A stretch of 13,057 nt of DNA, from contig JAYENL010000062.1 of the NCBI GenBank assembly GCA_034722055.1, positions 1-13,057 on the forward strand. Reading direction: 5' to 3'. This DNA comes from Armatimonadota bacterium (lineage in GTDB: Bacteria; Armatimonadota; Zipacnadia; Zipacnadales; UBA5352). Each line of letters opens with the position of its first letter. Positions within the stretch are counted from its first letter, which is position 1. Both the position numbers and the translations under genes were made by a program. This document shows, one piece after another, positions 4,070 through 13,057 of this stretch. Below the pieces are notes generated by a model. The model was not told the origin of the DNA. It saw nothing but the letters and a program-made list of their open reading frames with translations, and did not search any database.

Positions 4070-4153
4070 GCGGAACTGCGGGCGGCGGGCAACGTCGGAT
4101 AGAGATGGGGCCAGCCTGCGAGCGTAGCCGTGGTGAGGACCGACGGCGATTCG

Positions 4154-4264
4154 GGTGGAGCGGCCGCCGGGCGCGCTTAGCACGTGGGCCGGGGTGGAAC
4201 CTGTGAGGTCACTCGCTCCGCTCGCGACCTCACACCGCTCGCTTCGCTCGCGGCGGCCCCTCCA
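4154..4264. repeat. Structured inverted-repeat element, copy 1: a partial + motif at 4154-4176 joined to a complete minus-strand motif at 4186-4264
   Basis: 4154-4176 matches 12858-12880 at 22/23 nt. The reverse complement of 4186-4264 has the same flanks and two-hairpin layout as 12860-12955. The terminal arms 4156-4169 and 4251-4264 are complementary at 13/14 nt. Confidence 0.8.
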
Positions 4265-4358
4265 TGGTGGCGGCAGGCGGGTTACGGTGACGCCGCACAA
4301 TGCGGGAACCTCTGCCACTGAGCACGAGCCTCAGGCAACGCGGGAGGTGTCGCGAGCG

Positions 4359-9032: not shown

Positions 9033-10301
9033 ATGGCTCTCTCAGAGGTTGTGGGGCACGACCAACCCATCGAGGTGCTCACACACGCTATCGCCACGGA
9101 CCGCATCGCCAAGGCCTACCTGTTCGTAGGGCCGCCGAACGTGGGCAAGACGCTGGTGGCCAAGGAGTTCGCCAAGGCGGTCAACTGCGAGAGCCCCGTT
9201 GAGCGCGAGGGCGGGCGCCTTGAGGGCTGCGATAGCTGCCACAACTGCGTCCGGATAGACCAGGAGAACCATCCCGACCTGCTGGTGCTGCGACCGTCGG
9301 TTCGCGTTCAGGTCAGGGAGCGGGATGAGGATGTCGAGGCTGCGGCCGCCGAGGGTGAGGAGGAAGAGGCGGCTCCGGCGGAGGTGCAGGTGAGGACAGG
9401 CGTCCAGGACGTCTACATCGAGCTGCCCGACGCCGTCATCTACATCGACCAGATACGGCGCCTGATCCGGCACGGGGCGGCACAGCGGTCGGCGGCGAGG
9501 CGCAAGTTCTACATCATCTGCAGCGCCGAGACCATGAACGATCCGGCCGAGAACGCCCTGCTCAAGACCCTGGAGGAGCCGCCGCCCCACACTACGCTGA
9601 TCCTCACCACCGCAAACCTCCCCGAGCTGCGGGAGACGACGGTCTCCCGCTGCCAGGTGGTGCGCTTTCAGCCCCTCTCCCACGGGGAGTTGCGGGAGGT
9701 GCTGGCGGAGAGCTTCCCTGATGCGGGGCCGCAGCGGATCGCGGCCGTCGCGGCCATGGCCGGGGGACGCTACGGGCGGGCGCAGAGGCTGATGGACGCC
9801 CCGGGTCTGGTGGAGCTTCGGGGCGACCTGTTGGAGCTGGCGGCGGCGACGGCCAATGCGGACCTGGCGGAGTGCCTCCACCTAGGGGAGCGGGTGATGG
9901 CGCTGCCAGAGCAGTGGTGGGAGGCGGCGCAGGCGGCCGAGGAGAGCGTGGGCGTGCGCTCTGAGACCGAGCGGACGCTGCGGGGGCGGGCGCTTGAGGA
10001 GCTGGGGGCGGGGAGCCCGGATCGCATCAACCGGATCCAGATGAGCGAAATGCTGGACCTGCTGCAGACCTGGTACCGGGACCTGACGCTGCTGCGGCGC
10101 GCGCCGGACTCGGAGCTGGTGATCAACGCCGACCGGCTGGCGCAGTTGCGGGAGCTGGCACCGCTGTACAGCCCGGCGGGGCTGATCTGGGCGTCGGATG
10201 TCATCGAGGACGTTCGGCGAGACCTGAGCGTGCACAACGCCAACTTCCGGCTGGCATGCCAGACACTGATGGTGAAGCTGATCGCCGCGCGGCGGCGGTA
10301 G
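9033..10301 (+). CDS. holB: DNA polymerase III subunit delta' (clamp loader)
   Basis: N-terminal VVGHD, AYLFVGPPNVGKT (Walker A), Zn cluster C...CDSCHNC, HPDL, IDQIR, AENALLKTLEEPP, SRC arginine finger, and C-terminal WYRDL...INAD typical of HolB. Confidence 0.93.
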   Translation: MALSEVVGHDQPIEVLTHAIATDRIAKAYLFVGPPNVGKTLVAKEFAKAVNCESPVEREGGRLEGCDSCHNCVRIDQENHPDLLVLRPSVRVQVRERDEDVEAAAAEGEEEEAAPAEVQVRTGVQDVYIELPDAVIYIDQIRRLIRHGAAQRSAARRKFYIICSAETMNDPAENALLKTLEEPPPHTTLILTTANLPELRETTVSRCQVVRFQPLSHGELREVLAESFPDAGPQRIAAVAAMAGGRYGRAQRLMDAPGLVELRGDLLELAAATANADLAECLHLGERVMALPEQWWEAAQAAEESVGVRSETERTLRGRALEELGAGSPDRINRIQMSEMLDLLQTWYRDLTLLRRAPDSELVINADRLAQLRELAPLYSPAGLIWASDVIEDVRRDLSVHNANFRLACQTLMVKLIAARRR

Positions 10302-11660: not shown

Positions 11661-11700
11661 GGCTCAGGCCATCAGCAGTGCAGATCGGGGGGTGAGGCAG

Positions 11701-12780
11701 ATGTCCGAGGACAGCAACGAAACCATCGCGCGGGCGAGGCGGCTGATCGAAGAGGGCCGCCAGGACGCTGCCGTGCATCTGCTTAAGCCGGTGGTGGAGG
11801 AGGAGCCGGACGAGCCGGCGGCCTGGGCGGTGCTGGGCGCGGCCTGGTTCGAGCTCGGCAACTACGCCGAGGCGGAGGGGGCGGCGCGGCAAACGGTGCG
11901 GCTGCGGCCCCACAGCGCTCGAGACTGGAGCAACCTGGGGACGATCCTGCGCAAGCGCGGTGAGCTGGAGGAGGCGGCCAGAGCGCAGCGTCGGGCCCTG
12001 CAGCTCGAGCCGAGCTACACCCGCGCCCGAGTCGAGCTGAGCAAGCTTGGCAAGCAGTACGCCGAGGCTGAGGCCCCGCCGCCTGAGGCGCCTCCGGACT
12101 TCCAGGAGGCTCCCGTGCCGCCGCCACCTCCCGAGGAGGTCAGCAGGCCCCGGGACCGTCGCTCCCGGGAGCGCGTGCCTGAGCCCCAGGAGCAGGAGCG
12201 GGAGCCGCAGGAGGACGTGGCGGCTCGCCCGCGCCCCGAGCCCGCCGGCGGCAATCTGCTGCACGCGGTCGTGGCGGTGCTGATCGTCACGAACCTGGTG
12301 GGCTTCGGCGGCTGGCTGGTGGCCCACCGGCGGGCCTCGGCGACGCGTGCGGAGTTGCAGGCGCTTCGGGATGACCTGGCCGCCCGGCGGGCCGGGCAGG
12401 CGGCGGAGCAGCAGCGCCGCCAGGCGGGCCCGGGCTCGGAGCTGTCCTTCGCGGCCGTGGACGCCATGTTCGGCCGCGACAGCAAGCACACGGTGGTGGA
12501 GATGGAGCAGCTCTGGGAGGGCTATCGAGGACGGGTGGTCTCCTGGCAGGGGTCGGTCAAGGACGTGGAGCGGGACGAGGCCGGCGGCTACACGCTGCGG
12601 GCAAGGTGCGCCGAGGGCGAGGGGGCGGCCGACACCACAGTGCAGTGCTCCCAGAGTGAGGCCACGGCTCTGGCCGGTCTGCACAAGGAGGACGCGGTGT
12701 CAATCACCGGGACGCTGGCGGAGCGCACCGATGAGGGCTACCTGCTGAGTCATGGGTACGTGCGCTCGCTGGTCCCGTAG
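11701..12780 (+). CDS. TPR-repeat protein with Pro/Glu-rich linker, single TM helix, coiled coil and putative C-terminal OB-fold, 359 aa
   Basis: TPR-like repeats (AWAVLGAAWFELGNYAEAE...P; DWSNLGTILRKRGELEEA...ALQLEP), a Pro-rich tract, TM LLHAVVAVLIVTNLVGFGGWLV, then YRGRVVSWQGSVKDV...LHKEDAVSITGTL. ATG 11701 follows GGGGGTGAGG. Confidence 0.8.
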   Translation: MSEDSNETIARARRLIEEGRQDAAVHLLKPVVEEEPDEPAAWAVLGAAWFELGNYAEAEGAARQTVRLRPHSARDWSNLGTILRKRGELEEAARAQRRALQLEPSYTRARVELSKLGKQYAEAEAPPPEAPPDFQEAPVPPPPPEEVSRPRDRRSRERVPEPQEQEREPQEDVAARPRPEPAGGNLLHAVVAVLIVTNLVGFGGWLVAHRRASATRAELQALRDDLAARRAGQAAEQQRRQAGPGSELSFAAVDAMFGRDSKHTVVEMEQLWEGYRGRVVSWQGSVKDVERDEAGGYTLRARCAEGEGAADTTVQCSQSEATALAGLHKEDAVSITGTLAERTDEGYLLSHGYVRSLVP

Positions 12781-12857
12781 TGCTCACTTGCGCAATTCCG
12801 CGTACCTTGACGACGGGCACAGTCGGCGCTTGGTTGCCTCAAAAACCCACCGTGTCC

Positions 12858-13057
12858 GGTGGAGGGGCCGCCGGGCGCGCAGCGCCCGGTGAGGCCTGTG
12901 ACTGAGACTTCGTAGAAGTCTCCCAGCGAATAGGCCTCAGGTTCCATCCCGGCCCGGTAGATAGCTCTATGAAGCGGCGAAACGGCGCGCCGGCGGGGGC
13001 GCCTGCGCTAATGGTCGGGCTGGAAGCCCGTGAGACCGAAGGTCTCCAGTGGGCCGG
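12858..13057 (+). repeat. Structured inverted-repeat element, copy 2, running off the window edge
   Basis: A complete motif at 12860-12955, further GNA-triloop hairpins at 13016-13030 and 13032-13046, and a terminal GTGGGCCGG (13049-13057) identical to 4184-4192, where the inverted motif begins in copy 1. Confidence 0.8.

Follow-up and report, generated by a model that had tools for sequence, protein, structure and literature searches.

What is the conserved two-hairpin motif that occurs twice in this stretch of DNA, and which enzyme might act on it? The window analysed is an entire contig of 13,057 bp from a 6.14-Mb Armatimonadota genome in 330 contigs (68% G+C). In addition to the motif, it carries an apparent type II restriction-modification pair, an N6/N4 DNA methylase gene followed by one for a BglII-family restriction endonuclease (2-1410, +), and a gene like that for DNA polymerase III delta-prime with an acidic insertion (9033-10301, +). 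Both copies of the motif, A and B, lie where the original prediction had placed them (Table 1). As described there, their flanks are identical at 11/11 and 15/16 positions, the first hairpin is 8+3+8 in both, with one G-C pair exchanged for C-G and a tandem GA/GA in copy A, the second hairpin is 50 nt in copy B and 33 nt in copy A, and all four loops are c-GNA-g triloops. DNA folding of the copies gave z = -5.4 (copy B) and -2.2 (copy A). The motif was predicted to be a structure-selected single-stranded DNA (ssDNA) element, possibly the substrate of an HUH enzyme encoded elsewhere, and was not recognised as a member of a named family.

Table 1. Features of the motif and of its surroundings in the window.
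Feature	Coordinates	Strand	Basis
REP copy B (B type, probable four-way-junction REP), 96 nt	12860-12955	+	sequence and DNA fold
REP copy A (A type, tandem GA in both arms), 79 nt	4186-4264	-	sequence and DNA fold
GGAG foot of copy B, replacing the GTAG guide of classical REPs	12861-12864	+	nearly invariant in 190 copies
P1, 5' strand, of copy B (partner 12950-12955)	12865-12870	+	pair probability 0.95-0.99, DNA parameters
P1, 3' strand, of copy B	12950-12955	+	DNA-parameter fold
Side arm P2 of copy B, 8+3+8, GNA triloop	12871-12889	+	arm parsing
Side arm P3 of copy B, T-A closing pair; extra hairpin in B subfamily	12890-12939	+	
P4 of copy B, 2-bp stem and 6-nt loop TTCCAY	12940-12949	+	closing pairs covary across three families
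Outer doublet flank beside copy B	12778-12859	+	G instead of C before the end
95-nt doublet spacer separating the two REPs; contains two more hairpins	12956-13050	+	~95% identical to C24 doublet
Partner A-type REP, first 7 bases, then contig end	13051-13057	-	alignment to C24 doublet
Outer flank of copy A; end motif at 4326, CT before it (4328-4327)	4265-4328	-	
Truncated B-type partner remnant of copy A	4151-4176	+	24/26 identical to B-type head

The further copies that the original prediction proposed to look for were found in number. The two-flank pattern matched the genome 190 times, as compared with 1 and 0 matches for two reversed-pattern controls. None of the 190 copies overlaps a called gene, the calls coming from a simple codon-score caller written for this analysis that missed one gene of the window. 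A stricter pattern was present in 12/79 genomes of the class, all from one family (11/17 and the source genome). Genomes G020, G021, G026 and G030, from other families of the same order, have 126-218 copies each of elements with the same GGAG foot and stem. Those listed (150 of 648, from G026 and G021) resemble hairpins of the simple or bulged kind, so that foot and stem characterise an order-wide REP superfamily. Small cassettes that form hairpins, their arms being GAGAC/GTCTC and their loops GNA, are seen in P3 (12902-12924) and in the spacer (13032-13048) of the window; similar cassettes inside G026 REPs suggest exchangeable hairpin modules.

The genome has six Y1 HUH genes. One of them, on contig C193, is bounded by four copies of the element in the order A-, B+, gene, A-, B+, and the other five have no copy within 3 kb. 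This gene supports the expected tie to an HUH enzyme encoded elsewhere. Its 171-aa product, P0001, scored 92.6 bits against the curated RAYT model NF047646 (cut-off 80) and 31.3 bits against the IS200 TnpA model, below the cut-off of 55. The best relative of solved structure is the E. coli TnpA-REP 4ER8 (E 1.7e-5). P0001 retains the HLH motif, WQ..D and the catalytic tyrosine (Tyr135), and has D instead of the N of the class-2 motif Y---NP (PMC6006769, accessible part). It is encoded by a single-copy gene, the next paralogue being 46% identical, and its two nearest named relatives are from Armatimonadota. At C193 (L002:1088-1255 and 2019-2190) the outer copies are head to head, and the 168- and 172-nt linkers resemble each other and, loosely, the outer flanks of doublets, as in a tandem array. 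At another locus (L017:1050-2600), a simple double-foot hairpin is repeated in long tandem arrays to either side of a related RAYT.

RAYT-like genes were compared at 39 loci, comprising the own genome, 30 loci from 56 family-search matches and the three best metagenome matches. The element adjoins the gene at 9/39 of these loci, namely C193 and eight loci in relatives. In a tree of 45 proteins the nine element-bearing RAYTs fall into two well-supported clades (100/99 and 99/94); such clustering was matched in 0/500 label shuffles, and a single origin of the nine was recovered in 8% of bootstrap trees. Among the loci fetched for 5/12 element-bearing genomes (G005, G007, G010, G016 and G017; 83-98% complete, with a few to 18 copies each) there was no flanked RAYT, which speaks against a strict link between element and RAYT. 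Beside other close RAYT paralogues there are different repeats, which share the GGAG foot and the GGGCCG/CGGCCC stem. The source genome contains 559 GGAG-footed elements, mainly of five families that match five RAYT genes: the paralogues at L001, L003, L004 and L005 each have their own GGAG-footed REP family, two being simple 26-nt hairpins and two long GA-containing forms. REP families hence pair one-to-one with RAYT paralogues. In the RAYT relatives at L119, L120, L006, L113 and L124-L126, the foot-recognition segment is altered (WLKRVSG or WL.E.Y.RIIR instead of WQRSF.DRH) and the flanking hairpins are different, so that protein and foot possibly co-vary there.

Given the 190 extragenic copies, mostly in convergent pairs, and a RAYT flanked here and at eight loci in relatives, the element is a REP, and the expectation that it belonged to no named family did not hold. 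The features of REP/RAYT systems found here are a RAYT-family gene, inverted flanking repeats that are kept with relatives of the gene, a high extragenic copy number and a conserved 5' foot.

The motif is one half of a larger doublet with defined ends. Among pairs less than 1.5 kb apart, 48/55 are convergent and 46 have gaps of 15-96 nt; pair types are A+B (30), C+D (9) and A+A (1). The doublet thus corresponds to a REPIN or BIME, in which two inverted REPs form the replicating unit. A shared end motif lies 60-62 nt (A) or 81-84 nt (B) outside the REP head. The 18 doublets with both ends are 313-441 bp long, and near-identical doublets of 390-410 bp occur at many sites. The dinucleotide CT precedes 43/84 ends at the modal distance, as compared with a genome background of 5.8%, and the inner side of the opposite doublet end likewise reads CT on the same strand. 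Half of the doublet ends are without CT, and the data bore out neither the predicted asymmetry of the two ends nor the expected association of a missing CT with A as the first base of the end (p = 0.79). Beside copy B, the terminal TAG of the doublet end (12778-12780) doubles as stop codon for the TPR gene upstream (11692-12780), whose orthologue in the same-genus genome G001 extends several codons further. As the doublet end begins with TAG, insertion beside stop codons may be common.

G001 lacks the insertion at both sites of the window, and ~250 bp at the copy A site are missing from the orthologous site there. Nine doublet loci were tried in the empty-site search in G001, of which six aligned and three were informative; the remaining loci had no orthologous flank or showed larger deletions. 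All three informative empty sites (3/3) join without duplication. The cut sites are placed to 1-2 nt, the relative being just ~88-90% identical. Copy B belongs to a young doublet, ~95% identical to that of C24, of which the window contains the left part up to the seventh base of the partner, where the contig ends. In contigs of four metagenome DNA runs from one study, neither a joint skipping a whole doublet nor a circle junction was found, a result that does not count against either; among the sequencing runs listed for this DNA there was no RNA run.

The arms show covariation. The first arm is 8+3+8 in 133 copies: 65 of these have Watson-Crick pairs at positions 5-6, 63 have tandem GA/GA there and 5 are mixed, the two states exchanging as a unit, and the loop is GNA in 112; the base of the second arm is Watson-Crick in 87/175 and GA/GA in 58/175 of the copies parsed (175 of 190), all of these counts reflecting a few subfamilies. 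Across genera the arm bases take many sequences yet stay paired. The covariation, GNA loops and GA/GA exchanges noticed in two copies therefore hold across hundreds. No unpaired base separates the arms from each other or from either flank in 103/139 distinct copies of this genome and in 62/77 distinct copies of other genomes (hand-picked listed places and fetched loci), whereas shuffling gave 25 (maximum 39) of 216. There are 161 occurrences of the GA-flanked triloop motif and one of its reverse complement, which identifies the active strand. GNA triloops and sheared GA pairs are unusually stable in DNA, and such loops favour DNA over RNA. The arms most likely speed and stabilise the local fold and mark the active strand, given that GNA loops and GA/GA pairs can arise on just one of the two strands.

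How the arms are joined can be seen by comparison with simpler relatives. Several related RAYTs have 26-nt REPs that consist of the foot, a six-pair stem and a self-closing 10-mer. The element of the window has the same layout, with two arms inserted between the 5' strand of the stem and the 10-mer. In two sister families, found in 6/18 genomes, these arms accompany other 10-mers, and the arms abut in 7/7 and 7/9 fetched copies. The 10-mers of the three families start with G and end with C, and as second pair they have G-C, C-G or T-A. Next to RAYT L109, the T-A family lacks the arms; it has them next to the sister RAYT L117 (100/99) and at other places in G016, the genome of L109. The armless 26-nt layout and the covarying second pair suggest that the 10-mer is a hairpin tip (P4) and that the whole is most likely a perfect four-way junction. 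The stretch taken in the original prediction as an unpaired junction strand is thus better read as a fourth helix. P4 would be the tip of the ancestral REP hairpin, and its TTCCAY loop is probably a family-specific recognition loop. Helices of a four-way junction stack in pairs, and P1 stacked on P4 would rebuild the ancestral hairpin.

A pseudoknot between TGGA at the foot and TCCA in the junction strand had also been predicted and was rejected. The base before GGAG is C in 17/190 copies, and A in relatives, with TCCA unaltered, so that changes of the first base are uncompensated, and the loops of the sister families cannot pair with the same foot. A three-pair GGA/TCC contact may form in the TTCCA family alone. 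This leaves the possibility that the same REP/RAYT system uses a three-way junction with an unpaired junction strand and, possibly, a TCC-GGA foot pseudoknot. P4 is indeed marginal in energy: it gains ~1 kcal/mol, with a probability of 0.72 in copy B and 0.10 in copy A, and its support in the DNA-parameter fold of copy B is weak. In the TTCCA family, double changes in P4 were found in 1/190 own and 3/79 other copies, and single changes also occur; no armless form of this family was found in G000, the source genome, and one near-armless copy was found in G009. GGA and TCC are both nearly invariant in the family, so covariation has no bearing on whether they pair. However, the first base varies while TCCA is constant, the sister families keep foot and arms with non-complementary loops whose ends are paired, and in the accessible account of the TnpA-REP crystal structure the foot is held by protein (PMC3479197). 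A three-way fold is therefore considered unlikely, and the four-way junction is most likely the fold.

The functional form could instead be a doublet-long hairpin or cruciform, the flanks being merely inverted repeats and the arms extruded passengers. The minimum-energy fold of the C24 doublet is such a long REP:iREP hairpin, not two junctions, which suggests that the two folds may compete; the short gaps in 46 doublets and the outer ends, which are imperfect inverted repeats, are likewise in keeping with it. However, a doublet hairpin requires complementarity, not the invariance of P1 and the 10-mer across genera; the RAYT-flanking copies are 500-600 nt apart or head to head; and the arms meet the junction to the base. 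Hence this form is improbable as the functional one, and the four-way fold and the doublet hairpin may alternate.

It is very improbable that a structured RNA (regulatory, terminator or mRNA-stabilising) was selected and that the RAYT link is secondary. RNA folding is significant too (z = -5.5 for copy B and -2.1 for copy A), copies are enriched in gaps between convergent genes (46/149, as compared with 232/1944 gaps), and classical REPs are often transcribed, according to the accessible part of PMC3733652. However, orientation with respect to neighbouring genes is unbiased (47 sense and 41 antisense copies), and the predicted loops comprise 231 triloops, of which 168 are GNA, and 84 tetraloops, of which 5 are GNRA and none UNCG. 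The Rfam scan proposed in the original prediction, carried out on the window and five other loci, gave no match to a described RNA at E <= 1, and no tRNA or tmRNA was found. The one-to-one pairing of REP families with RAYT paralogues also argues against an RNA; a secondary RNA effect may exist beside the RAYT role. That the copies are ends of another mobile element (IS91-like, IS200/IS605 or a DDE-moved MITE) is suggested by the fixed, imperfectly inverted doublet termini and is hardly tenable in view of the IS200 score of the flanked gene, the absence of target duplication at 3/3 informative sites, the lack of matches in viral contigs and, weakly, since control genomes gave 0 matches as well, the 0 matches to the IS91/ISCR Y2 transposase (PF04986) in G000.

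As compared with described systems, in so far as the accessible parts of the cited papers cover them, the element is closest to four kinds of system. The E. coli REPtron/REP-BIME (TnpA-REP, subclass 2.2/group 2) shares an HUH-Y1 gene flanked by REPs and a tetranucleotide foot 5' of the stem that ends in A-G (PMC3333891, PMC3479197), inverted doublets of two REP types, CT at inferred cut sites and strand-marking irregularities of the stem. It differs in having a GTAG foot and a bulged hairpin, whereas the element here has a GGAG foot, is branched and 58-130 nt long, and has long conserved outer flanks with fixed ends and an Armatimonadota host. Before the same stem, GGAG was found 673 times and GTAG 30 times, so the element departs from the GTAG-tagged types of PMC6006769; with two arms abutting the stem, it also departs from the canonical unbranched hairpin. 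Group 3/subclass 2.5 RAYTs of Pseudomonas, Stenotrophomonas and Marinomonas share D and R in place of E. coli E100/H101 (PMC3116915, PMC8266576, PMC6006769), a short stem whose loop probably determines specificity, as in the loop read-out described for short REPs (PMC8266576), several RAYT paralogues per genome with a REP family each, and a doublet that replicates; unlike theirs, the short hairpin here is interrupted by two arms and has a GGAG foot.

Likenesses were also found with two other groups. In TIRtrons/TIRYT and the atypical subclasses 2.1, 2.6 and 3, Y1 genes are likewise flanked by longer, partly self-complementary, dimer-forming inverted repeats (PMC3733652, PMC6006769). The GGGGWSAS motif of TIRtrons is missing here, and P0001, with its 171 aa, is without the C-terminal extension of subclass 2.1. 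The four REP types of PMC6006769 are all single hairpins, as far as the accessible text goes, with occasional GGAG feet and GA/GA pairs; its table S1, of which 60 of the 61 GGAG places were covered, includes two GGAG-footed hairpins and hairpins with tandem GA, and the rows covered are single hairpins, in contrast to the branched element here. The ends of IS200/IS605 elements (IS608, ISDra2) are alike in the folded ssDNA end, the guide tetranucleotide and the duplication-free insertion that is likely here. However, membership would entail a multicopy IS200-type TnpA, whereas P0001 is single-copy and below the IS200 cut-off, and each strand of the symmetric unit carries a REP. Neither a branched REP nor an Armatimonadota REP appears in the accessible, mostly open-access REP literature, including PMC3116915, PMC5581495, PMC5737381 and bioRxiv 2021.07.10.451892; supplementary figures of PMC6006769 may show atypical structures.

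Taken together, it is highly probable that the motif is the REP of the C193-encoded RAYT (TnpA-REP, HUH/Y1) and spreads as a convergent A+B, REPIN/BIME-like doublet with a four-way ssDNA fold. In the mechanism that we propose, exposure of a strand by replication or supercoiling would allow the REP on that strand to fold into the four-way junction. P1 and P4 would stack, recreating the ancestral 8-bp REP hairpin with a 6-nt loop, and the inserted arms P2 and P3 would stack on each other. The RAYT would then bind the GGAG foot and the P1/P4 hairpin and read the TTCCAY loop as a family badge. TnpA-REP cuts at C^T, including sites remote from the hairpin, the choice being made by the foot bases A3 and G4, as reported in the accessible parts of PMC3479197, PMC3333891 and PMC8266576, and the GGAG foot retains both bases. 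A3-G4 could thus select the C^T cut at the fixed ends 60-84 nt away, after which strand transfer would free the doublet, which would insert at another CT with no duplication of the target. The A arms differ from the B arms, which probably weakens the competing doublet-long hairpin.

A bolder reading is that the element is a natural ssDNA mimic of a perfect (4H) Holliday junction and that the functional signal lies in the junction, which would attract a host protein that binds or resolves junctions or would arrange the synaptic complex of the RAYT. We regard this as doubtful. If true, a hairpin bound by RAYTs would have acquired two ultra-stable arms by splicing, RAYTs of at least three specificities would have reused the product, the doublet would be exactly excised and reinserted at C^T by peel-and-paste, and the element would be the first REPIN with IS-like exact ends and a dock for a host factor.

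The element is a new structural variant of the REP/REPIN-RAYT system from an uncultured lineage. Natural ssDNA folds beyond a hairpin are called rare in the accessible part of PMC5737381, and excision and insertion of REPINs in vivo are still presented as a model in those of PMC3333891 and PMC8266576. The covarying, family-wide probable four-way junction and its armless counterpart constitute a natural experiment on DNA recognition by RAYTs and on the selection of ssDNA structure, and the fixed CT ends and clean empty sites supply exact substrates and predicted products for the REPIN model.
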